Assembly (NCBI RefSeq): GCF_036365525.1
Contig: NC_090377.1
Coordinates: 122,688,007 to 122,752,006, forward strand
DNA length: 64,000 nucleotides
Source: Heterodontus francisci
Lineage: Eukaryota
Direction: 5' to 3'
The notes beneath the pieces are model-generated. The model searched no databases. It was not told the DNA's origin and saw only the letters and a program-made list of their open reading frames with translations. This document shows positions 1 through 53,119 of the stretch, in pieces; the stretch's first letter is position 1, and every line of letters begins with the position of its first letter. The translations under genes and the position numbers were made by a program.

Positions 1-1727
1 CCTTGTAACCCTCTAGAGCACTGTCTGATCCTTGCTTCCTCAACCTTAAGTAAGCTTCCTTCTTCCTCTTGACTAGCTGTTCCACATCTCTTGTCATCCA
101 AGGTTCTTTCACCCTACCGTCCCTTCCCTGCCTCATCGGGACAAACCTATCCAGCAGTCGCAGCAAGTGCTCCCTAAACAACCTCCACATTTCTGTCGTG
201 CATTTCCCTGAGAACATCTGTTCCCAATTTATGCTCCCCAGTTCCTGCCTAATAGCATTGTAATTCCCCCTCCCCCAATTAAATATTTTCCCATCCCGTC
301 TGCTCCTGTCCCTCTCCATGACTATAGTAAAGGTCAGGGAGTCGTGATCACTATCACCGAAATGCTCTCCCACCGAGAGATCTGCCACCTGGCCTGGTTC
401 GTTGCCAAGCACCAAGTCCAACATAGTCTCCCCTCTAGTCGGCCTATCTACATATTGAGTCAGGAAACCTTCCTGGACACACCTGACAAAAACTGCTCCA
501 TCCAAACTATTTGCACTAAGGAGGTTCCAATCAATAGTAGGGAAGTTGAAGTCACCCATGACAACAACCCTGTTACTTCTGCACCTTTCCAAAATTTGCC
601 TCCCAATCTGTTCCTCCACGTCTCTGCTGCTATTGAGGGGTCGATAGAAAACTCCCAACAAAGTAACTGCTCCTTTCCTGTTTCTGACTTCCACCCATAA
701 TGACTCAGTAGACAAACCCTCCTCGACGACCTCCCTTTCTGCAGCTGTGATACTATCCCTGATTAACAATGCCACTCCCCCACCTCTTTTACCTCCCTCC
801 CTATTCCTTTTGAAACTTCTAAACCCTGGAACATCCAACATCCATTCCTGCCCCTGTGATATCCACGTCTCCGTAATGGCCACAACATTGTAGCTCCAAG
901 TACTGATCCACGCTCTAAGTTCATCACCCTTATTCCTGACACTTCTTGCGTTAAAATAAACACACTTCAACCCATCATACTGGCTGCAACTTTGCCCTGT
1001 CAACTGTCTAACCTTCCTCACAGACTCTCTGCACTCTGTATCTGCCTGTTCAACAGCTACCCCATCCACTGATCCGTGGCTCCGGTTCCCATCCCCCTGC
1101 CAAACTAGTTTAAACCCTCCCGAAGAGCTCTAGCAAACCTCCCGCCCGGGATATTGGTGCCCCTCCAGTTCAAATGCAACCCGTCCTTCTTGTGCAAGTC
1201 CCACCTTCCCCACAAGGTATCCCAATGATCCACGTATCTGAATCCCTCCCTCCTACACCAGTTCTGTAGCCACGTGTTCAGCTGCACTCGCTCCCTGTTT
1301 CTAGCCTCACTAGCACGTGGCACCGGTAACAATCCTGAGATTACTACTCTGCTTGTCCTGCCTTTCAGCTTCCAACCTACCCTATATTCGCTTTTCAGGT
1401 CCTCATCCCTTTTCCTAGCTATGTCATTGGTACTGATATGTACCACGACCTCTGGCTGCTCCCCCTCCCCCTTAAGAATCCTAGAAACACGATCCGAGAC
1501 ATCCCTGACCCTGGCACCCGGGAGGCAACATACCATACGGGAGTCTGGTTCGCAACCACAGAATCTCCTGTCTGTTCCTCTAACCATTGAATCTCCCATC
1601 ACTATCGCTCTCCTATTCTCCCCCCTTCCCTTCTGAGCCACTGAGCCAGGCTCAGTGCCAGAGACCTGGCCACTGTGGCTTTCCTCTGGTAGGTCGTCCC
1701 CTACAATCGTATCCAAAACGGTATACG
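1..1727 (-). mobile_element. CR1 LINE, 5' part: ORF1 SGNH-esterase domain and start of ORF2 (AP endonuclease); runs off the left edge
   Basis: ORF 1105-1935 contains GDSMVRG..CLPGARV..VVVHISTND..DGLHLN (CR1 ORF1 esterase). The minus strand at ~340-560 reads VMGDFNFP and SDHDS (APE motifs). Confidence 0.9.
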
Positions 1728-1772
1728 TTTTTGGCTTCCCATTTCCAATTTCTCTCGTTTGTCTGTGGGTAA

Positions 1773-2700
1773 AATTCCAGATGCTAGCACCCAAATTTCT
1801 GTTATGGCCAGGTGAGAAAGAGGTCTTAGGGTTCCCTTTTAGCCTTTGTCTGGTCTTACTGTAACAGGGTTTTATTTTTAAACACACTATTTTTTTAAAC
1901 TCCCCTTTGGTGAATCCATGTTCACCGCTTTCCAATTATAAGGCAAAGAAACCAGCACAAACAGGCTTTCTTAGCTTTAAAGAAGAAAAGTTGAAATTTA
2001 GTAAACTTAAAACTTAAACTTTAATTTGGTTAATGCCTATGGATACATGCCGCACCCCACACTAGCATGCATATGTGATACACACATGCAAATAGAGACA
2101 GAAAAGAGCAGAAGAAAAATAAAGTGGAAAGGTTTGAGGTAATATCTGGAGAGTTGTTTTTAAGGTTCTTCGAGCTCACTGTAGAGTCCTTGATTGTAGG
2201 TAGATCTTTCTTTTCATTGGGGCCCAGTATTCTTCTTAAACCTTGTTCGCTGTAGGAGACTTTTCTCTCTTGGGGTTCATGTATCTTCAGTGGATTTAGA
2301 GGCTTATGATAAAGAGATGGGAGCAGACAGGAGAGATCTTCTCAGTTCAGGAGCAAACAGCTTTTTGCCTAAACTGTTTGTACAAATTCAAAAAACACAG
2401 GTTAGTCATATGACTAGCTGTTTGACCATGTCTGTTTGTGTATTCGGCCATCTTAGCAGTCAACCTGGAATGTGAGCTTCCCCACCTTCAATGTCTGGTG
2501 ATCAAAAGTACATTGTGAGTTGAATGTCAGGGAATGGCTGCTTTGTCCTTCCAAACACTGCCTGTTAATATGCAAATCTCTTTTCCAGCCACGGCTGATC
2601 TGTTCAATAAGTCCTTTCTTAACTTCAGTAACAGTTTAAAATCATGTTCATGACAAAATTAATGTGCCTCGTTCTTGGCAGGTGGGGGCCTAGCATGACA
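1773..2700 (-). mobile_element. ~900-bp LTR (1800-2700) plus degenerate primer-binding site; probable 5' LTR of a Gypsy/ERV-type element
   Basis: TG...CA termini (TGTTATGG...GCATGACA) and homology to 52719-53758. On the minus strand the LTR is followed by TGGGTGCTAGCATCTGGA, resembling the tRNA-Pro PBS TGGGGGCTCGTCCGGGA; AATAAA on the minus strand at ~1872. Confidence 0.75.
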
Positions 2701-2944
2701 AGAGGTTTACGAAGGGTAGAACATGAGAGACTGGGCAGGAGTGTGATGGAATAGTCAAGTCTAGGGTAGCAAAGGCATGGAAGAGGGTTTCAGCAGCAGA
2801 TGAATTGAGGCAGGAGTGGAGTCACACAGAGTATACCTGTGAACTTTAACTTTTTTGTGCATTTGTTTGTAAAATGGTGAGACAAAGAGCAGAATGCGCA
2901 AGTGTGGACATCAGATTTCAATACTATTAACATGTGGAGATACT

Positions 2945-3325
2945 AGAAAGACAGAGATTGCTTTCCTTGGAGCAGAGAACGTTAAGGGGAGTTTTAATAG
3001 AGGTGCTGAAAATTATGAAGGTTATTGACAGAGTAGATCGGGAAAAACTGTTTCCACTGGCAGTAGGGTCTGTAACCAGAGGATGCAAATAATTGGCACA
3101 AGAACCAGAGAGAAATGAATTGTTACGATCTGGAATTCACTGCCTGAAAGGGTGGTGGTAGCAGATTCAGTAGTAACTTTCAAAAGGGAATCAGATAAAT
3201 ACTTGAAAAGGAAAATATTACATGGCTATGGGGAAAGATCAGGGGAGTAGGACTAATTGGATAGCTCTTTCATAGAGCCAGCACAGGGCACAGTGGGCCC
3301 AATGGCTTCCTGTGCCATTAGATTC
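2945..3325 (+). mobile_element. CR1 LINE 3' end fragment
   Basis: Decayed LEQRxLRGxLIEVxKIM ORF2 C-terminus followed by a CR1-type 3' UTR. Confidence 0.75.
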
Positions 3326-4029
3326 TATCTCTGTAAAACAACCGAGCAGCATTGATATTATATGGTATGTAGCATTCTACTTGGCAGCCAGCACTTAATC
3401 CTGATGATTAATTCCCATTTGCACACCTCCCTTTGATCATTTTTATTGTCTGTGAAAGGCGAAGGAACCTGTCATGTATTTACTTGCCAAAGGGAATTGA
3501 TATAATAAAAACTATCCCCTTAATCCGTTGGTTCAGCTTCAGGACAGGCCAGTTGCTTGTAGCAAAAGCTCAGAGTTTGGAAGTAATTTACAGCCATATT
3601 TTTTTCTCTTGTTATTACGACAGATGACAACACTGAGCTGACACTGAGGAGGCACGATTTACTGCTGAGTCCCCAGTGAGTCACTGACCCAGATAAATCA
3701 GGCTCGGCAAAAATGCTTCATTTTATGGGTGAGATACTCCACTGAAAAGTATTACATTTCCTCAAACGCCAGCCAACTGCATCAATAGTACACCAAAAGA
3801 GATCTGAGCTCCTGGGATATTGGATTCATAATAAAAAGAGAGATTTATGTATATTGTATTTTGATAGAGAAGGATGGTAAATGAAATTCTGAATCCTTAT
3901 CTCTTCTCAACAGCGCAGCAACTTTATCCAGTAATTTACTGAACCATGCAAAGTCTGAATGTCCCAGGCTCAACCCCCAGTCTGTGCCGAGTTAACTGAT
4001 TTCATCAGAAAAAAAAAAGACTTGTATTT

Positions 4030-5900
4030 CAACAACAACTTGCCTTTATATAATGCCTTTAACATATTTAACATCCCAAGGTACTTCATAAGGACATATT
4101 AGGACAGGTGACCAAAAGCTTGATCAAAGATATAGGTTTTAAGGAGCATCTTAAAGGAGGGGAGAGTGGTAGAGAGGTAAAGAGATTTAGGGATTTTAGA
4201 GCCTAGGCAGTTGGTGGAGCAAAGGAAATTGGGGATGCACAGGAGGAATTGGAGGAACATAAATATCTTGGAGTGTTGTGGGCTGAAGGAGATTACAGAG
4301 ACAAGGAGGCAGGAGGCCATGGAGGGATTTGAAAACAAGGATGAGAATTTTAAATCCAAGGCATTATGGACTGGGAGCCAATGTGGGTCAATGAGCACAG
4401 GGATGATGGGTGAACGGCACTTGGCAGTTTTGGATGAGCTCATTTGCAGAGGGCAGTAGGTGCGAGGCCTGCCAGGGGAGCATTGAGAGGTAAAATAGGC
4501 ATGACTGAGGGTTTCAACAACAGATAAACCGGGGAAGGGGCGGAGATGGGTGATGTTACGGACGTAGTATTAGGCAGTTTTAGTGATAGAGAGGATATCG
4601 AGTCGAAAGCTCAGCTCAGGGTCAAATGGGATGTCAAGGTTGTGAATGGTCTGGTTCAGCCTCAGACAGTTGCCAGGGAGATGAGTGGAGTCAGTGGCTA
4701 GGGGACGGAGTTCGTGACTGGGACTGAAGAGAATGGCTTCGGTCATCCCAATATTTATTTGGAGGAAATTTCTGTTCATGCAATACTGGATGTCGGGCAA
4801 GTGGCATGACAAATTTGAAGCAATGGCGGGGTCGAGTGAGGTGGTGGTGAGGTAGAGCTGGGTGTTGTCAACATACATATGGAACTTGATGCATTTTTGC
4901 ATGATGTCGCTGAAGTGTAGCAGGTTGATGAGAAAATGGAGCGGTCTACGCATAGATCCTTGGGGGACTCTGAAGTAATGGTGTGGGAGCAGGAAGAGAA
5001 GCCTCTGCAGGTGACTCTCTGGCTATTGCCGGATACATAAGACACAGCTAGATGGTAGAGGAGGGATCTTGGAGAAGGATGGTGTGGTCAGATGCGTCAA
5101 AGGCTGCAGACAGTTTGAGAACGATCACACAGGATGTCATTTGTGACTTTGATTTGTGCTGTTTCAGTGTTGCAGCAGGGGCAGAAACCTGATTGCGGAG
5201 TTGAAGGAATAATGGGCATGGATTTGGGAGGCAACAGCATGTTCAAGGATTTTGGAGCTAAAGAGAGGTTGGAGATGGGGTGGTAGGTTGCAAAGATCTA
5301 GGATGGGTGTTTTGAAGAAGGTTTGATAATGACAAATTTGAAGGGGAGGGGGAGAGTACCTGAATAGAGAGAACTGTTTACAATATCAACTATCATGGGG
5401 GACAGGGAGGGAAGTTAGATAGTCAGCAGTTAGTGGGAAAAGGATCAGGGGAGCAGGAGGTGAGTCTCATGTGTTACATTTTAGGTAGCCTGGCGGTGAA
5501 GCATAGCACTGGAGCCAATCTTTACACACTTTATAAGTTTTTATTTACACATTACAAACATGCACCTCCAAATCCAACCAACGCAGTTTCAGTCCGTTCC
5601 TATATATATAGAAGCACAAGTGAATACAATTACACACCCATTTAATATAGTTATCAAGTTGGATAAGATGAGCTCAGAGAGGGCATGAGGGGAGATAGGA
5701 GAGAAACTGGAAAAAGATGCAAGTTCAGGGCTAGAGTGAGGGGAACCTTAGAGGAAGTTTGGTTCGATGGGTGAGGGGAAGGGAGAGAAGCAGCAAAGGC
5801 ATTTGAACGGATGGCCTCAATCTTAGTGACGAAGAAGTGCATGAGCTCCTTGCACTTGTTGGAGGTGAGGGTGGAGGAGACAGGGGAGAGGGGTTCAAGA
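4030..5900 (-). mobile_element. L2 LINE, decayed RT and 3' end
   Basis: ORF 4570-4953 FHMYVDNTQLY (YADD motif) ..MNRNFLQIN..TEAILF; ORF 4099-4443 has PVLxxxHWLPV and FKxLLKTYxF; (CAA)n tail at ~4030. Confidence 0.85.
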
Positions 5901-9950: not shown

Positions 9951-12283
9951 TGTCTGTGCTTCTCCAATTCTGGCCTTTTGTGCATCCCCAATTATAATCA
10001 TGCCACATTGGCAGCTGTGCTTTCAGCTGCCTACGCCCTAAGCTCTGGAATTCCCTCCCTACACCTCTCCACCTCTCCTCCTTCATAACACTCCTTAAAA
10101 CCTATCTCTTTGACCAAGTTTTTGATTACCGGTCCTAAAATCTCCCGAGGTGGCTCGGTGTCAAATTTTGTTTGAGAACACTCCAGTGAAGCGCCATGGG
10201 ATGTTTTACTATGTTAAAGGCACAATAGGAAGACAAGTTGTTGTTGTAGTTTAATATAGATTTCTGTATTAGTCTTTCCACATCGCTCACGAGTGTTTTT
10301 TGGTAAAGATCATCAGCAAGATGAATTTCACCCTGACGTGCATAAATGTGACATTTTGGCTTATCCATTATGATCAGCGGTGCAGTTAAGTCTTAACTTT
10401 TCATTAATTACAGGTCAGTCTGCTGAAGTCATTTCAGATGCTCAAGAATGTCAGGCTGTGGATCAAATAAGACAAAAGAAAAGTTAAAATCCTCTGAGGA
10501 GCAATTTCAGCTAAATGCAATTTACTTCTTCACAGAACCCCCCTTGCCTTAGAGAAATGAAAGGTAATTATGAACCTTGATAACTCTTTAGACTGACAAT
10601 GAAGTACTCCTATTTCTTTTGTTCTTGACTATGATTTATAGGTTACTCATTCCCAGCAGCTGAAGTTTTGTTGCTTTTATTCTTGGGGGATTTTCAACGG
10701 GGACAGGGGGAAATGTGCTGGGAAGTTTTGTCCTGATTTCCCCTCTAAAGCTGTGACCTTTGCCCCTGTGCCTGTCTCAAACCATTGAAATCCAGTAGAA
10801 TAATAACTGGACTTTTCTCCATGGCACTGAGTACCCATTTCCTGCCATGCAAAATTCGCAGTACAGTCTATGCTTTTTATTATAATATGTGAAATTGTGG
10901 CAATTTTGTTTACACATTTCAATCTTCTGTTAACTGTCTCAGGAGGGCTTGGAATGGTGCAGTTTGGTGACGTGTTCCGTCTGACTGCAATTGATCAGAT
11001 GCAGGTCTAAGCATGCCTTTCTGCTCAGGAGGGAAAATTCTTGGTTTTGCAGAATGTATAGGGTTTCTATAATTTGTCTCCCTCTACATTGGAGAGTTGC
11101 TTGAAGCTTACCCTTCACTTTCAGTTGGGTCCTGCCTGGATTTCTTCTAATCCAAGGCTTCTCTTCAGCCTGTAGAATGGCTCTGTTTTGTCTTCGGACT
11201 TCCGCCTGTCGTACGATCTGAATTGCCTTCTCGCATGTAAGGTCATCTTTCAACTGTAAGAGATCGGGAAAAGACTCTTCAGCTCTTCCGACAACTATTC
11301 AGATCTGCCTTTAATTCTCCATAGTCACATCCCTCAGCCAAACTGTACAGATCATTTATAAAAGAATCTACAGATTAGCCTATCTTCAGGATTTGCTTGT
11401 TAAATTTTGCTCACTCCAGAATTTTGTTACTGTGTAAATTGAAATATTTGTCGAAGGCTGGTAACATCCTCAAATTTATCAGATGCCTCGTTTATGCTTC
11501 ACAATTGCATCATCTGCATATGCACCTGTAGAGTATAAGAGGGTATTAACTTGTTCTGCTTCTGATTTAGAATGAAACAGGGAAGCAATCCTAAATTGGA
11601 GGAATCTATTTCTCCATAAAGTCCAACTTTGTTCCTGATTGGGTCCTTCCTGATTGTGGAAGCTTTCAGGCATTCTAAATTTTGAATACATTCTGTTTTC
11701 TTGGCTTTGTTAGGATTTTTTAGGGTGTTTCCCTTTCTTTTTAAAATGTATTGGCTTTAATGGAGGTGTTAATGCTCTTTCTAGGGGTTTCCCACACTTT
11801 CCGGGAATTCCTGTGCTCTCTCTCTGCGGTCTGGCTGAGTAATGGCTGCCGACTCCACCCGACTCCCAACTCGCCTTTTCGCTCAAGATCAACCTCGCTC
11901 CCCAATTTTTTCACACAGTGCGCTGTTGTCCACAATGGCCCCTTTTTAAAAATCTCTCACCCAATCCTGAAACGTCACCCGGCACTGTGAGTGGGAATCC
12001 GATTGCTGGACCTGGTGTTTCGTGGCAGACCATCGCGCTGCTGTTGCACAGTCTGAATGCCTGTACAGCTGCAGTTCTGGAGCTCTTTGCAGTCCCCTGA
12101 TGAGATCTGCTGTTCTCTTGGCACTGCTTCATGAGGTAAGGTGTTCTCCATACTTTCTGGTCGTTCTAACCGGTGCCACCATATTGTGTGTTGTTGTAGC
12201 AGGAGTAGCGTAGTTAGGGCATTCTTGATAAGGTCTCGGAGTCTGGATAAGGTCAACTAATAACTCTTATATTATTTACACAT

Positions 12284-13498
12284 ACCCCACTCCTGCGCCG
12301 TGGCAGTCACCCGAGCCATTTTCCGCTTCGTCTGGGGATCTAAAATGGACCGAGTCCGGAGGGACACGATGTTCAAATCTCTGGACATGGGCGGGAAAAA
12401 TGTACCTAACGTGGCCCTCATCCTGATGACCACCTTCGTGTGCGGCTGCATCAAGCTATGTGTAGATCCCCAGTACGCAAACTCCAAGTGTCACTACGTG
12501 CTGAGGTTCTATCTGTCCCCGGTGTTGCGAAGGATGGGCCTGGTCACATTGCCGCGGAACGCACCATGCAGTTGGGCGGCGCCGTACCACCTATCCTTCG
12601 TGGAGCAGTTTCTGCGGAAAAACACCTTTGACCACCAATCCATCAGGCAGTGGTTTGCACGGAATGTCCTCAAGGCCCTACGGGAAAAGGAAACGGTGGA
12701 TCCTGTCGGATGGTTCCCCGAGCAGACCGTCAAAGTCATTTGGCGGAATGCCTCATCACCAGAACTTTCAAGCAAGCACCAAGACGTAGCTTGGCTGGTG
12801 GTGAGAAGGGCCCTCCCCGTCAGATCCTTCATGCACACCCGAAGTCTCGCCCCCTCCGCACAGTGCCCCCGCGTTGGCTGTGGTGGGGAAGAGACGGTCG
12901 CCCACCTCCTCCTGCAAAGCAGGTGTGGAAAGAGATGCAGTGGTTTTTGTCAAGGTTCATCCCAAGCAGCTCTGTAACACAGGAGTCTGTGCTCTACGGG
13001 CTGTTCCCAGGGACGCACACCGAGACAATCATCAACTGCTGCTGGAGGACTATCAATTCGGTGAAAGACGCCCTTTGGTTTGCCCGAAACCTGCTGGTCT
13101 TCCAGCGCAAAGAGTTGTCCACCACCGAATGTTGCAGACTGGCACATTCCAAGGTCCAGGACTACGTGCTGAGGGACGCACTAAAGCTTGGGGCAGCCGC
13201 AGCAAAGGCTCAATGGGGAAAGACCACAGTGTAAGGTTCCCCCACCAAGCTGGACTGAGGGGCTGGAACCACGGGAAGCCCCTCGAACTGTATCGTTAAT
13301 ATTCTCAATTGCTGTAAATGTAAAACTGTAATTGACATGACAATTGTGAAACGGAAGGGTTGGGAAGAAACTCATGACATTATTGAAAGAAACTGATCTC
13401 TTTTGCAATGTTTGTATTTTTTCGTGCTGTTTGGAAACTGTTTGGCAATGTAATTTTTACAGAGTTTTATGAATAAAGTATATTTTGGAAAAAAAAAA
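12284..13498 (+). mobile_element. Tx1 (L1-clade) LINE, 5'-truncated, copy 1
   Basis: ORF2 C-terminus IFRFVWGSKMDRV..GG..VPN and zf-RVT (CPRxGCGGEETVAHLL); AATAAA, poly(A), TSD ATTATTTACACAT. Confidence 0.9.
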
Positions 13499-13512
13499 TA
13501 TTATTTACACAT

Positions 13513-14050
13513 CCCAAGCAGCTCTGTAACACAGGAGTCTGTGCTCTTCGTGCTGTTCCCAGGGACGCACACCAAGACAAACATCAACTGCTGCTGGAGG
13601 ACTATCAATTCGGTGAAAGACGCCCTTTGGTTTGCCCGAAACCTGCTGGTCTTCCAGCGCAAAGAGTTTTCCACCACCGAATGTTGCAGACTGGCACATT
13701 CCAAGGTCCAGGACTACGTGCTGAGGGACGCACTAAAGCTTGGGGCAGCCGCAGCAAAGGCTCAATGGGGAAAGACCACAGTGTAAGGTCCCCCCACCAA
13801 GCTGAACTGAGGATCCATGGGAAACCCCTCGAACTGTATCGGGAAAATTCTGTGTGCTGTAAATGTAAAAATGTAATTGGCATGACAATGAAATGGAAGG
13901 GTTGTGAGGCAACTCAAAATTGTATGGAAGGAAACTGATCACCTTTGCACTGTTTGTATTTTTTGACTTGATGCTGTTTTAAACTGTTTGGAAATGTATT
14001 TTTCACAGATTTTTATGAATAAAGTATATTTTGGAAATTTAAAAAAAAAA
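13513..14050 (+). mobile_element. Tx1 LINE, 5'-truncated, copy 2 (tandem to copy 1)
   Basis: Nearly identical ORF2 end to 12958-13234, diverged 3' UTR, poly(A), flanked by ATTATTTACACAT. Confidence 0.9.
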
Positions 14051-14759
14051 TTATTTACACATCATTATCTACACTCTGCTCAAACCTCTCTAGCTAGCAT
14101 CCTTCGTGCTGCTACTCTCATCTTCCAAAGCCCATTACCATGTGACTGTAACATCATCATCGCTACAGTGTGAGGAGTTCCTCTCACTGTTTCCGACATT
14201 AATTGTTTCAGGTCCTTAGACTACAGTGAGTACAGACCAATATTTAATTACCTAATCAATATGACCAAAAAAATGGGCTTAGAAATGGGGCTGATTTTGA
14301 CTTTCTGCGGTAACGTAAAGCGGCTTATGACGATTAGACAGCCTGTTTTACAACTCTCCTGCTTTAGTTCCAAAGTTAAAATCTACGCCATTGAGTTCTT
14401 GTTAGAAGCATTTTTGAAGCTGTGAAGTACTGAGTGGCTTCGGGCTCAGAACTTTGACCTGTTTCTAATTTGCCTATGTGAGCTGGATTCTGTAACTCAA
14501 TGCAAAATGGTCAAATCTGCAGCTGATACCAAACTAGAAGGGACTTGAAGCTGGCAACTCAAAAATTGAAGGATGATTTGGACAAGACCTGAAACAGCAA
14601 ATCAAATGAGGTAAAAAAAGGGGAAAATATTTCACATGGAACGAAAGAAAATGGAAAGAATTGAATTTACCTGCATTTCTATGGCACCTTTCACACCCTC
14701 AGTATATCTCAAAGCACTTTAAAGTCAATTATGTAGTTCTGAAGTGTAGTCATTGTCAG

Positions 14760-15799: not shown

Positions 15800-16757
15800 C
15801 AGGGACTGGATCCCATGTAAAACCCCTTGGGTTGTATGCACCAGAGAATGTTTGACATGAAACATTGTAAATGTAACCTGTAATCGCAAGTGTAGTTGAG
15901 GCACCTCATGTACTGATTTGAAAGAAACTGATCTTTATTGCACTTCATGTAATGTCAAATTTAAAATGTTCTGTATTTTTTTTTACCGATTTTATGTCAT
16001 TTGGTAGAACGCCTCATCACCAGAATTTTCAAACAAGCACCAAGACATAGCTTGGCTGATGGTGAGAAAGGACCTCCCTGTCAGATCCTTCTTGCATGCC
16101 CGGAGTCTCACCCCCTCTGCACTCTGCCCTCGAGGTGGCTGTGGTGGGGAAGAGACTGTTGCCCAACTCCTTCTGGAATGTGTCTTCGCAAAGCAGGTGT
16201 GGAAAGAGATGCAGTGGTTTTTGTCGAGGTTCATCCCAAGCAGCTCTGTAACACAGCAGTCTGTGCTCTACGGGCTGTTCCCAGGGACACACACCGAGAT
16301 AAACATCAACTGCTGCTGGAGGACCATCAATTCGGTAAAAGACGCTCTTTGGTCTGCCAGAAACTTACTGGTCTTCCAGCGTAGACTTGTCCAGAGTCGA
16401 GTGTTACAGACTGGCACATTCTAAGGCTACGTGCTGAGGGACGCACTAAAGCTTGGGGCAGCCACTGCAAAGGCTCAATGGGGAATGACCACTGTGTAAG
16501 GTCCTCCCGCCATAGTGAACTGAGGGGCTGGACCCATGGGAAACCCCTCGGGCTGTATACACCAAATATGGGTTGGCTGTAAAATGTACATGGCATACAA
16601 AATGGGATGGAAGGGTTGTGAGGCAACTCACTCCTGTATTGAAGAAAACTGATTTCCTTTGCACTTTTAGAAATGTCATCTTGGTGCTGTTTTGAACTGG
16701 TTTGTAATGTATTTTTGTTACAGATTTTTATGAATAAAGTATATTTTTGGAAAAAAA
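15800..16757 (+). mobile_element. Tx1 3'-UTR relic (15800-15996) followed by Tx1 copy (15997-16757)
   Basis: ORF 16059-16424 is homologous to the Tx1 zf-RVT region; ends AATAAAGTATATTTTTGG(A)n. The upstream segment matches the same 3' UTR but stops just before AATAAA. Confidence 0.85.
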
Positions 16758-16899
16758 GATAAAATTAGATAACATCAAAATTAGTTATATGGGATAAAGA
16801 TTATAAACTTTATAGGAATAAGGATAGGGATTGTGAAATTTACAAGTGCAGAGGCTTAAAACTCCATATATCGTTTCAGTGGTTTGACAACTCTTGCTG

Positions 16900-17590
16900 G
16901 GGAATCTGCATCTCAGCTGTTGCTATTTTTTCTGAAGTTTCTCCCTCTCTGCATTCAGTTTCTGTTGCTCTGCCTTCAACCTGCTAATATACTCTGTTGC
17001 TTTTCTCAGGATGCCCACTTTTTGAGGCCTTGTTACTCTTGGAAAGTTCCGGCACCTCATCTTGAAGAGCCAACAGAAAATGCTCCACCTCATTCTTCCT
17101 CAGCCTCTTCATGACATTGCGTGTCCTTCGCCTCTCCTCATCATCTGTGTGTGAAGGTCTGGGGATTCAAGGTCGAGGATTTGTTCGGGAAAGAGTACTT
17201 GGTCTCATGGAGGTACCTGTCCGTTCTGGCTCGTTGTGGTGCTGGTGGTTCTCTAGAGAGCAGAAGTGAAGGCGCAGCATAGGATTGCTGAATTTCCAGA
17301 CTGCACCGTTTGATGCTGGCCAGAGTCTGAAAGCGGGTTCCGGTCCTTGGAGATTTTCCCTCACTGCCAGCCTTTGCTTCTCAATGGTTACAACGGCAAT
17401 CCCTTTTCTGAATCACTGGAGCGTGAAGAAACACTGCCTTTTGACAAAGAGTTTTCACCATCCAAATTTGGATCTTCATTCTCCTGGTGTGGCATCTCTG
17501 AGAAGAGGCTGATACTGTCCAAACCAGAACCACTGAGATCCTGCAAGAACTGTGACTCAATCTCAGATATCAAGGGGCTGGACACAGGGA
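16900..17590 (-). pseudogene. myc: Intronless, 5'-truncated Myc-family (bHLH-Zip) pseudogene embedded in Gypsy pol
   Basis: Manual minus-strand translation gives, in order: QFLQDLS, SSDSE/IAVVTIEKQR (MBIIIb EEIDVVTVEKR), IKRCSLEIQQSYAAPS (MBIV), PPAPQRARTD (NLS-like), DDEERRRTRNVMKRLRKNEVEHFLLALQDEVPELSKSNKASK/VGILRKATEYISRLKAEQQKLNAEREKLQKK*QQLR. About 4 frameshifts and 1 stop; the paralog is uncertain. Confidence 0.92.
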
Positions 17591-18879
17591 GATGCAGTAT
17601 GGCATCACCTTTGGAGTCTCCTGTGGCCTCAAACCTGTCTGGGTACATTTGTTGCAAAACCTGGACTGACTCAATATGGTTGTATCTTTGATTTCCAACA
17701 ACCCCAGTACATATCCTGCAAGATTCGAACTGGTAGGATATTTGCACTAGCTCTGGTGTCAATCTTGACCCTGAGTGTGTGGTTTCCAGCTTTCTTTGGG
17801 CACATGATGTTAATGGTAGCAAAAGCTTCCAGTTGTTTGGCTTTATCAACAACAATGTGTCAGGTTCACAATGTGAGAAGCCTGTTCGTCTTCTGGCTGA
17901 GAATTGCTCCACTCTGAGTCTTGCTTCAGGTCTGTTTCGTTGTGGACTTCGTGTATTGGCTTGCATAGGCGGGCCCAGTGTCCTTTTGCACCGCACGCCT
18001 TGCACAGATCTTGAAATGCAGGACAACTTTGCGGTGATTGGGACAAACCACACTTACCACGCAGCTTGCTTGCTTTTTGCGATCTGGTTATTGTGCCAAT
18101 ACTGTTGGCTGCAACTACTGCTTGCTGATGCTGTTGTCCAGCTACAATGCCTTCATATTTCCTGCCATCTTCTAGCAGCGCATCAATGCTGTGACCTTTC
18201 TTTTTCCCCAAGAGGTCTTTCTGAAACGCTTCAATGGCTGTTGAGACAATCACCAGTTCCATTAATCACTCCGACAGCTCAGTTACTGAAAAATCGCAAT
18301 TGTTGCCCTTACTATGGCATCTACTGATGAACTGATCTATTGATTCCTGTGACTGTTGCCTGTAGGACATCAATTTCAGGGGGTGAATTCTGAAATTCAC
18401 TCTTATTTGGAGTTGATCTTCTAGAACTTTCCATATCTTTGTGGGATCTTTCTGGTCCTCTTCAGATAAGCCAGAGTTACTGATTCTGTATAATCCCTTA
18501 TTTCCAACTGCTATTAGTATTTTTACAGCCTGCTTCTCTCATTATACAATCACTTGTTCTGTGAAACATAACTGCATTCTTTGTTTAAAAAGTTTCAACT
18601 CGGATAGGATATCAATGGCCTTCCAGTTCATGCTGGGAAATTTGGTATCACCTTTCTGCTGTTCCTTTGCTTTCTGCTCTATATTTAACTTTGTTCTTTT
18701 CACTCTGCACTGTTTCCCCTTTAAGAAATTCTCTGTTATTTAGACTAGCTGCTTGGAATGGAGAGGAGCAAGTGTTTGGCAGTGTTCTCTTAAGTGCTTG
18801 CAGTACTTAAGCCTGTCTGTTTACAGAGCTGTTCAATAGGCAATTCAATTGCTTTTTTTAGAGTTTGTTTATGTTCTTC

Positions 18880-19060
18880 ACGCTCGAGTGGTTTAATTTT
18901 TTTGAGCTGTGGCTGAGTAAATGGAGACTCTTCTTCCTGCTCGAATGGTTTAATGATTTTTTTAAACTTTGGCTGCTTGAATGGAGACTCGTCTTCATGC
19001 TCGAGTGGTTTAATGACTTTTTTAAACTTTTGCTGCATGAATGGAGATTCTGCAGTGTTC
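18880..19060 (-). repeat. ~60-bp tandem repeat x3 in the Gypsy leader, encoding 20-aa units
   Basis: ORF 18790-19095 repeats ESPFxQxKFKKxIKPxExE three times. Confidence 0.8.
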
Positions 19061-19085
19061 AGAAGTTTCCCATGCTTTTTGTTAT

Positions 19086-19436
19086 GGGGCGGCACAGTGG
19101 CGCAGTGGTTAGCACTGCAGCCTCACAGCTCCAGCGACCCGGGTTCAATTCTGGGTACTGCCTGTGTGGAGTTTGCAAGTTCTCCCTGTGTCTGCGTGGG
19201 TTTCCTCCGGGTGCTCCGGTTTCCTCCCACATGCCAAAGACTTGCAGGTTGATAGGTAAATTGGCCATTAGCAATTGCCCCTAGTATAGGTAGGTGGTAG
19301 GGTAATATAGGGACAGGTGGGGATGTGGTAGGAATATGGAATTAGTGTAGGATTAGTATAAATGGGTGGTTGATGGTCGGCACAGACTCGAAGGGCCTGT
19401 TTCAGTGCTATATCTCTAAACTAAACTAAACTAAAC
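19086..19436 (+). mobile_element. HE1-type V-SINE inserted in the Gypsy leader
   Basis: A box TGGCGCAGTGG, B box GGTTCAATTC, V-domain GGGTTTCCTCCGGGTGCTCCGGTTTCCTCCCAC, tail (CTAAA)n. Confidence 0.9.
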
Positions 19437-20056
19437 CTCCTGTAATGTCGCCGACCTCGATCAGCCTGGGCGAGGAATCAGATCCTCCCTGTGTTTTTTT
19501 TTCATGGAGCCTTTGAAAAAAATCAACTTTTTAAGCACTTCAAAGCTTGTTTTTTTTTTAAACCAGTATCCCTCGACTGTCGGCACGATGACTCACTCGA
19601 TCACAGGAATTTGCTTGCAGCCTGTCATTCTGAAATCTGTCTTCTACAGCTGGAGGTAAGTTCTTTTTTCTTTCCACTTTTTGGGCCAGTATCTCTTTTG
19701 AACTTTCTTTCTTTTGTCTGTAGCAGGGGTCATTTTCAAAGCTATTTTACCTGTGGTCTTCAAGCTTAGCTCTTGTGTTTTCACCACAGCTGCCACCATA
19801 TAATGAGTTCTTTATGTTGTCTGATGCAACATAAATGAGACACGTGGAGCTTAGTTTGCTGAAGATCTCTAACAGGTTTATTAACAGCTCAACTATTATA
19901 TACAGTACAGAGCAAACTATTTACAGAACCTTCGTCTGAGCGTTACAGTTGCAGAGTGACTCTGGCTTCGAGTCACATGACTACATCCTGGTACTTAGCT
20001 CATTAGCATACTGAGATCTTAAAGGGACATCACTCTTAAGGCAATCATACAATTAG

Positions 20057-42570: not shown

Positions 42571-45503
42571 CCAAAATAAAGGCAAAATACTGCGGATGCT
42601 GTAAATCTGAAATAAGAACAAGAAATGCTGGGAATACTCAGCAGGTCTGGCAGCATCTGTGGCGAGAGAAGCAGAGTTAACGTTTCAGGTCAGTGACCCT
42701 TCTTCAGAACTGGCAAATATTAGAAATGCAAAAGGTTTTAAGTGAGTAAAGCGAGGGTGGGGCAAGAGATAACAAAGGAGAAGGTGTAGATAGGACAAGG
42801 TCACAGAATAGCTGACCAGAAGGTCGTGGAGCAAAGGCAAACAATATGTTAATGGTGTGTTGAATGACAAAACATTAGTACAGTTAGGACTGAAAATTGA
42901 ACAGCCGCAAGTACAAACATGAAAAAAAACAGTGGGTAAGCAAACTGAACAAACTAAGATGAAATAAATTAAATAAACACAAAAAATATTTTAAAAGGAA
43001 AAAGAAAAAAATAACTAAAAATAAAAGTAAAATGGGGGGCCCGTCAAGCTCTGAAATTATTGAACTTAATGTTCAGTCTGGCAGGCTGTAGTGTGCCTAA
43101 TCGGTAAATGAAATGCTGTTCCTTGAGCTTGTGTTGATGTTCACTGGAACACTGCAGCAATCCCAGGACAGAGATGTGAGAATGAGAGCAGGGGGGAGTG
43201 TTGAAATGGCAAGCAACCAGAAGCTCGGGGTCCTGCTTGCGGACTGAGCGGAGGTGTTCCGCAAAGCGGTCACCCAGCCTGCGTTTGGCCTCCCCAATGT
43301 AGAGGAGACCACATTGTGAGCAGCGAATACAGTATACTACATTGAAAGAAGTACAAGTAAATCGCTGCTTCACCTGAAAGGAATGTTTGGGGCCTGGGAT
43401 AGTGAAGAAAGAGGAGGTAAATAGGCAGGTATTACACCTCCTGCGATTGCAGGGGAAGGTGCCATGGGAAGGGGACGAGGTGGTGGGGGTAATAGAGGAG
43501 TGAACCAGGGTGTCACAGAGGGAACAATCTCTTCGGAATGCTGACAGGGGAAGGGAGGAGAAGATGCATTTGGTAGTAGCATCATGCTGGAAGTGGTGGA
43601 AATGGCGGAGGATGATCCTTTGGATATGGAGGCTGATGGGGTGGAAAGTGAGGACACGGGGAACCCTGTTACGGTTCTGGGAGGGAGGGGAAGGGGTGAG
43701 GGTAGAAGTGCAGGAAATGGGCCGGACACGGTTGAGGGCCCTGTCAACCACTGTGGGGGGGGGGAGAATCCTTGGTTGAGGAAAAAGGAAGACATATCAG
43801 AAGCACTGTCGTGGAAGGTAGCATCATCAGAGCAGATGCATCGGAGACGGAGAAACTGGGAGAATGGAATGGAGTCCTTGCAGGAGGCAGGGGGTGAAGA
43901 AGTGTAGTCGAGGTAGTTGTGGGAGTCGGTGGGCTTATAATGGATATTAGTAGACAGCCTATCCCCAGAGAGGGAGACAGAGACGTCGAGGAAGGGAAGG
44001 GAAGTGTCGGAGATGGACCATGTAAATGTGAGAGGTGGAAATTAGAACGTCCAATGGACATCCAATCTCTCGACACCTTCATCTCCCACCAGGACGGTTT
44101 GAGGGCTCTCCGCTTCTTCCTTGAACAGAGGCCCAACCAGTCCCCATCCACCACCACCTTCCTCCGCCTGGCTGAACTTGTTCTCACATTGAACAACTTC
44201 TCCTTCAACTCCATTCACTTCCTTCAAGTAAAAGGTGTTGCTAAGGGTACCCGTATGGATCCTAGTTATGCCTGTCTTTTTGTGGGATATGTCAAACATT
44301 CCATGTTCCAGTCCTACGCTGGCCCCCTACCTCAACTCTTTTTCTGGTGCATTGATGACTGTATCGGTGCAGTTTCCTGCTCCCGCCCCGAACTGGAAAA
44401 CTTTATCAACTTTGCTTCTAATTTCCACCCTACTCTCACCTTTACATTATCCCCTTGTCCTCACTTTCCACCCCACCAGCCTCCATATCCAAAGGATCAT
44501 CCTCCGCCATTTCCGCCACCTCCAGCGTGATGCCACTACCAAATGCATCTTCCCCTCCCTTCCCCTGTCAGCATTTTGAAGGGATTGTTCCCTCCGTGAT
44601 ACCCTGGTCCATTCCTCCATACCCCCACCACCTCGTCCCCTTCCCATGGCACCTTCCCCTGCAATCGCAGGAGGTGTAATACCTGCCCATTTACCTCCTC
44701 TCTCCTCACTATCCCAGGCCCCAAACACTCCTTTCAGGTGAAGCAGCGATTTACTTGTACTTCTTTCAATGTAGTATACTGTATTTGCTGCTCACAATGT
44801 GGTCTCCTCTACACTGGGAAGATCAAACGCAGACTGGGTGACCGTTTTGCGGAACACCTCCGCTCAGTCCGCAAGCAGGACCCCGAGCTTCCGGTTGCTT
44901 GCCATTTCAACATTCCCCACTGCTCTCATGCTCAAATTTCTGTCCTGGGATTGCTGCAGTATTCCAGTGAACATCAACACAAGCTCAAGGAACGCATTTC
45001 ATTTACCAATTAGGCACACTACAGCCTGCCAGACTGAACATTGAGTTCAATAATTTCAGAGCATGACTGGCCCCCCATTTTACTTTTATTTTTAGTTATT
45101 TTTTCTTTTTCCTTTCTTATATTTTTTTTGTGTTTATTTAATTTATTTCATCTTAGTTTGTTCAGTTTGCTTATCCACTGTTTTTTTTCATGTTTGTACT
45201 TGCGGCTATTCAATTTTCAGTCCGTTAACACCCTATCTGTACTAATGCTTTGTCATTCAACACACCATTAACATATTGTTTGCCTTTGCTCCAGGACCTT
45301 CTGGTCAGCTATTCTGTGACCTTGTCCTATCTACACCTTCTCCTTTGTTATCTCTTGCCCCACCCCCACTTTACTTGCTTATAACCTTTTACATTTCTAA
45401 TATTTGCCAGTTCTGAAGAAGGGTCACTGACCTGAAACTCTGCTTCGCTCTCCACAGATGCTGCCAGACCTGCTGAGTATTTCCAGCATTTCTTGTTTTT
45501 ATT
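42571..45503. mobile_element. Penelope-like element (RT + GIY-YIG), two inverted partial copies in one insertion
   Basis: GIY-YIG NVVYCIRCSQCGLLYIGE..RLGDRFAEH on both strands; RT FLQVKGVAKGTRM..YACLF..IDD; 13-bp TSD ATTGGTCTAAATA (42558-42570, 45504-45516). Confidence 0.92.
42679..42707 (-). ncRNA. Minimal hammerhead ribozyme core in the Penelope terminal repeat
   Basis: The minus strand reads CTGAAGA-AGGGTCACTGACCT-GAAACGTT (CUGANGA / stem II / GAAA). A second copy is at 45413-45438 (+). Confidence 0.7.
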
Positions 45504-52378: not shown

Positions 52379-53119
52379 ATGCCCTCTGCATCACAATTCA
52401 CACACTTCCTATTCCACCCAAAACCATGTGACCTCCTGGAAACGGCAAGAAAGTAGAAAAAAACTCAGGCCAATTTGAATCATAGAATTTTACAGCATTG
52501 GAGGACGTTCAGACCATCATGCTGTGCTAGCTCTTTGAAGGAGCAGTCGTGCTTAGTCCCATATGCCCACTTTGTGTTTGTAAACCTGTAAGTTCCGCAT
52601 CCTCAAGTACATGCCCAAATCCCTTTCAAAATTATTTATGGAATCAGCTTCCATCTCCCTCTCAGATAAAGTGTTCCACAGCCGTCAACTCTGTAAGTGA
52701 AAAGAATTCTCTTCATATTGTTACGACCAGGTGAGAAAGGTGTCTAAAGGTCCCTTTCAGCCTTCACCTGGTCGTAACAATATGAAGAGAATTCTTTTCA
52801 CTTACAGAGTTGACGGCTGTGGAACACTTTATCTGAGAGGGAGATGGAAGCTGATTCCATAAATAATTTTGAAAGGGATTTGGGCATGTACTTGAGGATG
52901 CGGAACTTACAGGTTTACAAACACAAAGTGGGCATATGGGACTAAGCACGACTGCTCCTTCAAAGAGCTAGCACAGCATGATGGTCTGAACGTCCTCCAA
53001 TGCTGTAAAATTCTATGATTCAAATTGGCCTGAGTTTTTTTATACTTTCTTGCCGTTTCCAGGAGGTCACATGGTTTTGGGTGGAATAGGAAGTGTGTGA
53101 ATTGTGATGCAGAGGGCAT
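52379..53119. repeat. Near-perfect inverted repeat: 356-bp arms (52379-52734, 52764-53119), 29-bp spacer
   Basis: Arms are reverse complements, with one mismatch noticed (52456/53042); the same 61-aa ORF appears on both strands in the ORF track. Confidence 0.95.

Follow-up and report, generated by a model that had tools for sequence, protein, structure and literature searches.

The window, the whole 64,000-nucleotide stretch of Heterodontus francisci DNA analyzed here, carries the following order on its minus strand from position 20054 downward: first the LTR and a leader that a short repeat entered later, then a disrupted gag with its CCHC knuckle and a piece resembling a protease, and finally the Myc-like stretch (17590 to 16903), another 150 bases, and the end of an opposed LINE. 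The features, compared with other copies of the same element and with an autonomous relative (the helper), are as follows.

19799 to 20054, minus strand: 5′ LTR of ~255 bp, also seen past the myc part of other copies and at each end of the helper.
19787 to 19798, minus strand: primer-binding-site-like motif directly 3′ of the LTR, found at the equivalent position behind the 5′ LTR in several copies.
18632 to 19786, minus strand: leader, with a later short interspersed repeat at ~19091 to 19436, where alignments to other copies and to the helper break; the insert recurs elsewhere in the window.
17860 to 18631, minus strand: gag with a CCHC zinc knuckle at 17963 to 18004, broken, 86% identical to the helper; ~116 bp are missing near 17960, judged by the spacing in other copies.
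17595 to 17859, minus strand: aspartic-protease-like region, recognized from its sequence (active-site-like motif near 17760), and linker to the reverse transcriptase (RT) start, 80 to 83% identical to the helper; ~227 bp are missing near 17677.
17408 to 17590, minus strand: captured mych, 3′ part of exon 2 downstream of MBII, 85% identical to the host gene over 183 nt.
16903 to 17407, minus strand: captured mych, exon 3 to ~8 codons short of the stop, with an EIDVV-type acidic box, an HNYAAP-type box, and a bHLH-zipper (17136 to 16903), 86% identical to the host gene over 530 nt.
16751 to 16902, minus strand: 3′ region of helper origin, shortened in the integrase tail by a subfamily deletion and ending ~45 nt short of the polypurine tract; assigned by 88% identity to the helper 3′ region and by junction type.
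15965 to 16750, plus strand: 3′ end of a later LINE in opposite orientation (repeat families D1, D11, and D19), which truncates the window copy.

In a Pfam scan, the window gag gave zf-CCHC matches with E values of 9e-4 and 2e-3, both under the cut-off, and the protease piece and the middle gag piece matched no family. The helper runs on into RT at the point where the protease-like region and linker of the window end. Only the 5′ LTR of the window copy is present; the polypurine tract and a second LTR match are absent elsewhere in the window. The myc part contains four frameshifting indels and one TAG, so this copy is dead, as the original prediction held. Three related LINE 3′ ends of the zf-RVT type lie at 12735 to 14064 and 15965 to 16750, two of them in tandem, 552 nt apart and 98% identical, and a related LINE copy at 12264 to 12974 matches zf-RVT.

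A search of the 6.0-Gb genome placed the parent gene on contig C16 at 100.0 Mb, where its exons 2 and 3 are separated by a GT..AG intron of ~1.7 kb. Positions 17590 to 17408 of the window (minus strand) correspond to the last 183 nt of host exon 2 (85%) and positions 17407 to 16903 to host exon 3 (86%), and the two pieces abut exactly at the intron site. The likeness is not due to chance, because the two matches have E values of 0 and 1e-53 and a 16-base word of the host gene is matched exactly at 407 genomic places (one of which should be the host gene itself) compared to 0 for its reversed control. Exons 2 and 3 are likewise joined in 117 of 117 copies that span the splice site and in 20 of 20 copies of a second sample, which bears out both the intronless join and the mRNA origin proposed from the window sequence. 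The window match begins ~13 codons past the MBII-like DCMW motif of the host, and MBI and MBII are therefore missing, again as predicted. Both boxes are absent in all 118 copies compared, which start at or after host nt 345 (the few alignments that extend into bases upstream of it do so by chance) and end before the stop. The common 5′ start is host nt 345, which a secondary in-frame deletion of 129 nt moves to 382; the 3′ end is also common, and the captured segment amounts to approximately mych codons 116 to 352.

Exon 3 of the gene on C16 is 100% identical to a Heterodontus francisci protein named "myelocytomatosis oncogene homolog." In a tree of 33 rows built from the exon 3 region, with the window copy entered with X at its breaks, the window copy and four database-predicted copies form one clade (97/92) that is sister to host mych (98/92). 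These copies and the host gene belong to a mych clade of 18 rows (100/99) drawn from sharks, rays, coelacanth, and ray-finned fish, with MYC, MYCN, and MYCL outside it; in a topology test of the MYCL alternative only, grouping with MYCL was rejected (p-AU of 1e-6). This placement identifies the cargo, on phylogenetic grounds, as mych taken from the horn-shark lineage, the parentage that had been proposed tentatively from residues in the bHLH. Those residues fared unevenly as markers: KASKV comes from the host gene and persists in 101 of 114 copies, but NVM is private to the window copy (1 of 115), the host reading NVL and 112 of 115 copies keeping the L, so its likeness to teleost mych is coincidental. 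Horizontal capture from the mych of another shark was ruled out, since the tree sets the copies beside the host's own gene. A Myc_N search of the genome returned three intact host genes and >100 partial matches. In a whole-genome search that used the N-terminal region of MYC and scored 50 of 50 candidates, only MYC on C5, MYCN on C3, and mych on C16 carried MBI and MBII; MYCL gave no match in that search and may be lost, diverged, or missed. On the tree, mych forms a fourth Myc lineage of vertebrates, with members in sharks, rays, coelacanth, and ray-finned fish.

The captured fragment is one of many, a copy number that the original prediction missed, as it did the helper. A DNA search found, besides the window itself, 40 of 40 scored places at 80 to 85% identity. 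We aligned 139 loci and kept 118 that were distinct and covered >350 nt; 98 of the 118 came from best-hit lists, and all are better preserved than the average copy. The 16-base word is intact in 73 of these 118 well-preserved copies, which sets the copy number at at least ~650, and a second word is intact in 8 of 20 copies picked via the first, which gives ~1,000 copies with a wide error. The second sample consisted of 20 short stretches, namely, 20 of the first 28 places on C1, the other 8 being already in earlier search lists. The family thus comprises roughly 650 to 1,000 or more copies. A figure of thousands, taken from first-look candidate counts of 2,897 to 4,895, was dropped, since such counts are not copy numbers. 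At least seven copies sit in protein databases as genes of Heterodontus francisci, which bears on annotation: P0006 and P0121 to P0126, named myc-like or N-myc-like, all represent the element, protease-linker sequence opens several of them, and 7 of 7 read K at the basic-region Glu. At one locus (L100, positions 255 to 389), a copy is immediately preceded by a rearranged, partly inverted piece that belongs to a different myc-bearing copy.

Twenty longer stretches defined the element that carries the fragment. Its order is LTR, primer site, gag, protease, mych, short integrase tail, purine tract, and LTR, ~3.3 to 3.7 kb without later insertions. Paired LTRs of ~250 bp with TG..CA ends were found in 16 myc copies and 6 helper copies, with an exact 5-bp target duplication in 3 of the 16 and 1 of the 6, and the primer site behind the 5′ LTR and the polypurine tract ahead of the 3′ LTR recur across copies. 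Among the 29 best gag matches, 5 carry mych within 1.5 kb and others enter RT from the same point (eight junctions compared). The helper, found through a DNA search of the same genome, has the LTR, gag, and protease in common with the myc element and adds RT, RNase H, and integrase; one helper copy, L105, shows the Ty3/gypsy order protease-RT-RNase H-integrase. Its RT_RNaseH (E value of 2e-16) and Integrase_H2C2 (3e-9) domains were recognized, with an rve match under the cut-off (1e-5); the RT pieces gave no Pfam match and match solved caulimovirus and Ty3 RTs (2e-8 to 3e-5). L105 leaves no room for env: its integrase core piece lies ~570 nt from the 3′ LTR. By domain order and LTR features, carrier and helper are Ty3/gypsy LTR retrotransposons, and the myc element is, by its gene content, nonautonomous. 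Other internally deleted family copies without myc, in which gag is followed by the 3′ LTR, were seen at L075, L092, L096, L107, and L111, and several nonautonomous derivatives may exist.

The junctions suggest how the two sequences were joined. The helper and host mych have a 7-base word in common at the 5′ switch, where both code for Asp-Ala, and a 6-base word in common at the 3′ switch in the integrase tail, followed by an 8-base word at equal spacing; a double template switch probably formed the chimera. Modal spacings between landmarks are multiples of three (231 nt from gag start to middle gag, 354 nt from knuckle to protease, and 456 or 327 nt from protease to myc), and the spacing from middle gag to knuckle is without a clear mode (4 of 19 in frame). 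The in-frame fusion that had been proposed agrees with these modes, and the element most likely encoded a single Gag-protease-Mych polyprotein in which Mych replaced RT and from which the protease may have freed it. The 95 protease-side residues of P0006 found no match among longer proteins in a protein search, which is a weak test.

To order the subfamilies, we used nested shared changes. Type I (n = 51) and type II (n = 58), the latter with a further 3′ deletion, leave 9 copies unclassed, and the 129-nt in-frame deletion across the 5′ junction is common to many type II copies. The host bHLH aligns to c-Myc in 1NKP, and the altered residues correspond to c-Myc H359 and E363, the two base-contacting E-box readers. 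The host Glu (E363) is kept in 19 of 114 copies, comprising 17 of 51 in type I versus 2 of 58 in type II; of 18 readable copies in the second sample, 3 retain it, and these 3 belong to type I. CpG decay as the cause of E>K was ruled out; the preceding codon ends in G in most copies. The His (H359) is kept in most type I copies. The type II codon reads TGC in 22 copies, CAC in 17, and CGC in 14, which is the decay pattern of one CGC, and the His change is therefore common to type II. The original prediction had taken H>R and E>K as decay of the window copy; both are present there, but they belong to the family, and the subfamily pattern indicates that they arose stepwise while the element spread.

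Further changes mark the latest subfamily, in which a basic lysine in a motif that we take to be NLS-like is changed in 85% of copies and a zipper heptad leucine has become proline in 15 of 33; the zipper leucines are mostly kept early, and type II copies are without the last zipper heptad. The position of the NLS in Myc is given in PMC7226237. The backbone-contacting arginines are kept in 103 to 108 of 113 to 117 copies. Among 18 subfamily-diagnostic myc variants, 9 are synonymous, 9 are nonsynonymous, and none is a stop; private changes are 71% nonsynonymous or stop, and the diagnostic variants depart from that expectation at a P value of 0.044. In the same 42 copies, third positions account for 10 of 16 diagnostic sites in myc versus 9 of 23 in gag-protease (Fisher P value of 0.20); the third-position excess in myc gave P values of 0.05 and 0.016, and gag-protease showed no such constraint. 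Of 25 near-fixed differences from the host gene, 15 are synonymous, and comparison with five other sharks assigned 5 of the other 10 to the host lineage. These figures lend modest support to an open, constrained frame during the spread.

The spread is old. Pairwise identity among the copies is 86% and their identity to the host gene 88% (n = 45), and their tree is near-star, with tips of 0.073, a stem to the host gene of 0.045, and short internal branches. LTR pairs diverge by 0.123 in 14 myc copies versus 0.119 in 6 helper copies; the values are nearly equal, and the myc element and the helper therefore spread together. The neutral rate in sharks is roughly 0.5 to 1 per billion years per site, a figure on which the dating hangs and which would put the spread roughly many tens of millions of years ago or more. 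The myc part is now free of stops and frameshifts in 4 of 118 copies. Contigs under two other organism labels (B and C) hold the protease-side-to-myc joint of the secondary-deletion subfamily (X5, with 93 bases on the short side, and X8, with 38), and the type II joint is also present under label B; the family is therefore not confined to one species label. Protein searches returned extra mych-derived copies from Heterodontus francisci only, which is weak evidence for lineage restriction. Among sequencing runs labelled as RNA, none contained the stretch.

A spliced fragment of host mych was thus captured by an LTR element and amplified in this genome. In the horn-shark lineage, a Ty3/gypsy element at work in germline cells or early embryos would have packaged spliced host mych mRNA, and reverse transcriptase would have switched template twice at the short common words now seen at the junctions, so that mych codons ~116 to 352 replaced RT, RNase H, and most of integrase in frame with gag-protease. 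The chimera, having retained its LTRs, primer site, and polypurine tract, would then have been mobilized in trans by the autonomous relative and so have reached about a thousand places, a number and a common age that the copies themselves record. Zebrafish mych is zygotic, switched on just after the mid-blastula transition via Pou5f1, and antiapoptotic (PMC2323570; PMC3958507).

As to function, defusing of a harmful cargo is the reading that we favor, with somewhat better than even confidence. The product would have been one Gag-protease-Mych polyprotein without the transactivation and degron boxes, probably a burden and not a tool, since a stable transactivation-less Myc fragment in embryos would be expected to disturb Myc/Max targets. 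A double mutant of c-Myc at H359 and E363 binds Max, does not recognize the E-box, and slows growth if overexpressed, as stated in 10.1101/2020.05.04.076190. The best-spreading lineages changed, in order, the base-reading Glu, the base-reading His, and then the NLS-like basic lysine and the zipper leucine, with the frame kept open; this order is the pattern found in the copies, and selection against toxicity would account for it. Activity ceased long ago, and the copies have since decayed neutrally. Several points count against defusing. The selection signal rests on only 18 variants, the missing constraint in gag-protease is odd if the polyprotein mattered, in-frame junctions are favored anyway where microhomology reflects similar codons, the subfamily order comes from nested shared changes in a near-star tree with short internal branches, and the 118 copies are a better-preserved sample than the family at large.

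Three other accounts were weighed. That the copies arose from mych as ordinary processed pseudogenes or through DNA duplication, and came to lie beside LTR fragments later, is extremely improbable: intron loss is predicted by it, and nothing further, whereas the common junctions to gag-protease and to the integrase tail, the paired LTRs, and the target duplications are not; the two-sided junctions refute it, and the host 3′ UTR and poly(A) are absent in 45 of 45 copies compared. Unlikely, on the present evidence, is a fragment that served as neutral stuffer, in which the element, being shorter and having its cis signals intact, was simply copied efficiently, the frame remained open by chance or because premature stops destabilize RNA, and the changes at functional residues coincided in a small sample. 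Such an account draws on the internally deleted copies without myc (e.g., L075, L096, L107, and L111), on the fact that only 5 of 29 top gag matches carry myc within 1.5 kb, on the lack of constraint in gag-protease, on statistics that are marginal with small numbers, and on the secondary retroposition of LTR-borne retrocopies without function known from PMC5131818. The synonymous excess and the early change of both base readers, however, are unpredicted by it.

Slightly less probable still, and in our view doubtful, is a fragment useful to the element, as a Max-sequestering dominant negative, protease released or Gag fused, or as a nuclear or chromatin tether, with the loss of E-box reading having tuned that role. 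The frame was held through three junction events, the third-position excess is seen in myc and not in gag-protease, and the backbone-contacting arginines were kept while both base readers changed; that both readers should be among 9 random amino acid changes has a chance of ~0.001, for sites chosen after the data were seen. Against these observations stand the damage in the latest subfamily (proline at the heptad leucine and the changed NLS-like lysine), the loss of the last zipper heptad in type II, and the fact that damage is greatest in the commonest subfamily, the secondary deletion marking the start of 11 of 20 copies. The late proline argues against Max binding having been required. In its fullest form, which we hold equally doubtful, the retrotransposon domesticated the fragment, keeping the frame, removing E-box reading, and leaving the contacts with generic DNA, the WDR5 box, and Max, so that a natural modulator like Omomyc or the HEA mutant, or a chromatin tether, aided spread to a copy number of the order of the helper's and temporarily altered the Myc/Max dosage of shark embryos. 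Dominant-negative action is plausible for the early subfamilies; the late zipper-leucine and basic-lysine changes would fit progressive defusing better than a selected dominant negative.

The route of capture has precedents. LTR-mediated retroposition through microsimilarity-dependent template switching, with a median microsimilarity of 6 bp, is described by Tan et al. (2016; PMC5131818). Like the retrocopies presented there (maize Bs1 and HERV-K/FAM8A1), the shark element has a partial spliced mRNA in place of internal open reading frames, microsimilarity of ~6 bp at both switches, and both LTRs, and it went through further rounds of copying as a nonautonomous element. Unlike them, with their few copies (one to five for Bs1), it reached ~650 to 1,000 or more copies with subfamilies. 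The shark cargo also differs from those retrocopies in belonging to the Myc family, in lying in frame with gag-protease, and in having lost DNA-reading residues stepwise during the spread.

Acutely transforming retroviruses of the MC29 type have a gag-myc architecture, and transforming v-myc keeps MBI and MBII. The origin of v-myc is covered in PMC7226237. As in those viruses, an intronless myc replaces replication genes, is fused to gag, and depends on a helper; unlike them, the shark carrier is an env-less Ty3/gypsy element that is ancient and fixed in the germline, and its cargo is mych and not MYC. The shark cargo also differs from transforming v-myc in having no MBI or MBII, for which reason it is predicted to be nontransforming, and in a basic region no longer intact for E-box reading, as the fate of the Glu illustrates. 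The same two residues are altered as in Myc-HEA (H359A/E363A), with the difference that the natural shark substitutions are to basic residues and not to alanine, and the bHLH-zipper without a transactivation domain resembles Omomyc in outline; for both comparisons, the shark cargo is known from sequence only. The parent gene is, by name and tree, the orthologue of zebrafish mych (Hong et al. 2008, PMC2323570; PMC3958507), whose early-embryo expression, described in these papers for zebrafish and not shark, marks a time window in which a capture could be inherited.

A literature search, with subscription journals and repeat databases outside its scope, found no description of the element or of a germline-amplified captured myc at such a scale. 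The known cases of oncogene capture are those of somatic retroviruses, which are lost when their host dies. In the shark, the capture of a myc-family fragment became heritable and its copies multiplied about a thousandfold, giving a fossil parallel to the myc pickup by cancer-causing retroviruses. The mechanism of capture was already known; the element stands apart in its mych cargo, fused in frame to gag within a Ty3/gypsy retrotransposon, in its copy number, and in how contact residues were lost one step at a time. The dated subfamily series may record a proto-oncogene fragment under germline selection, in which DNA-reading and dimerization residues were lost step by step, and the question of passenger, poison, or tool becomes testable from sequence alone.

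Several other features were seen in the window. A 276-codon frame at 1105 to 1935 (minus strand) matches GDSL/SGNH esterases (E value of 3e-9), is related to a repeat in the host mych flank, and is presumably typical of the first open reading frame in CR1/L2-type LINEs. At 11520 to 11780 (minus strand), another gag-like frame starts behind a primer-site-like motif, marking a second, unrelated LTR element. Nested inverted repeats of 207 to 374 nt, 90 to 96% complementary, surround a weak GIY-YIG match (E value of 0.002) at 42682 to 45438, probably a Penelope-like element in inverted arrangement. A perfect 356-nt inverted repeat with a 29-nt spacer at 52379 to 53119 is either a very recent inversion or an assembly artifact.
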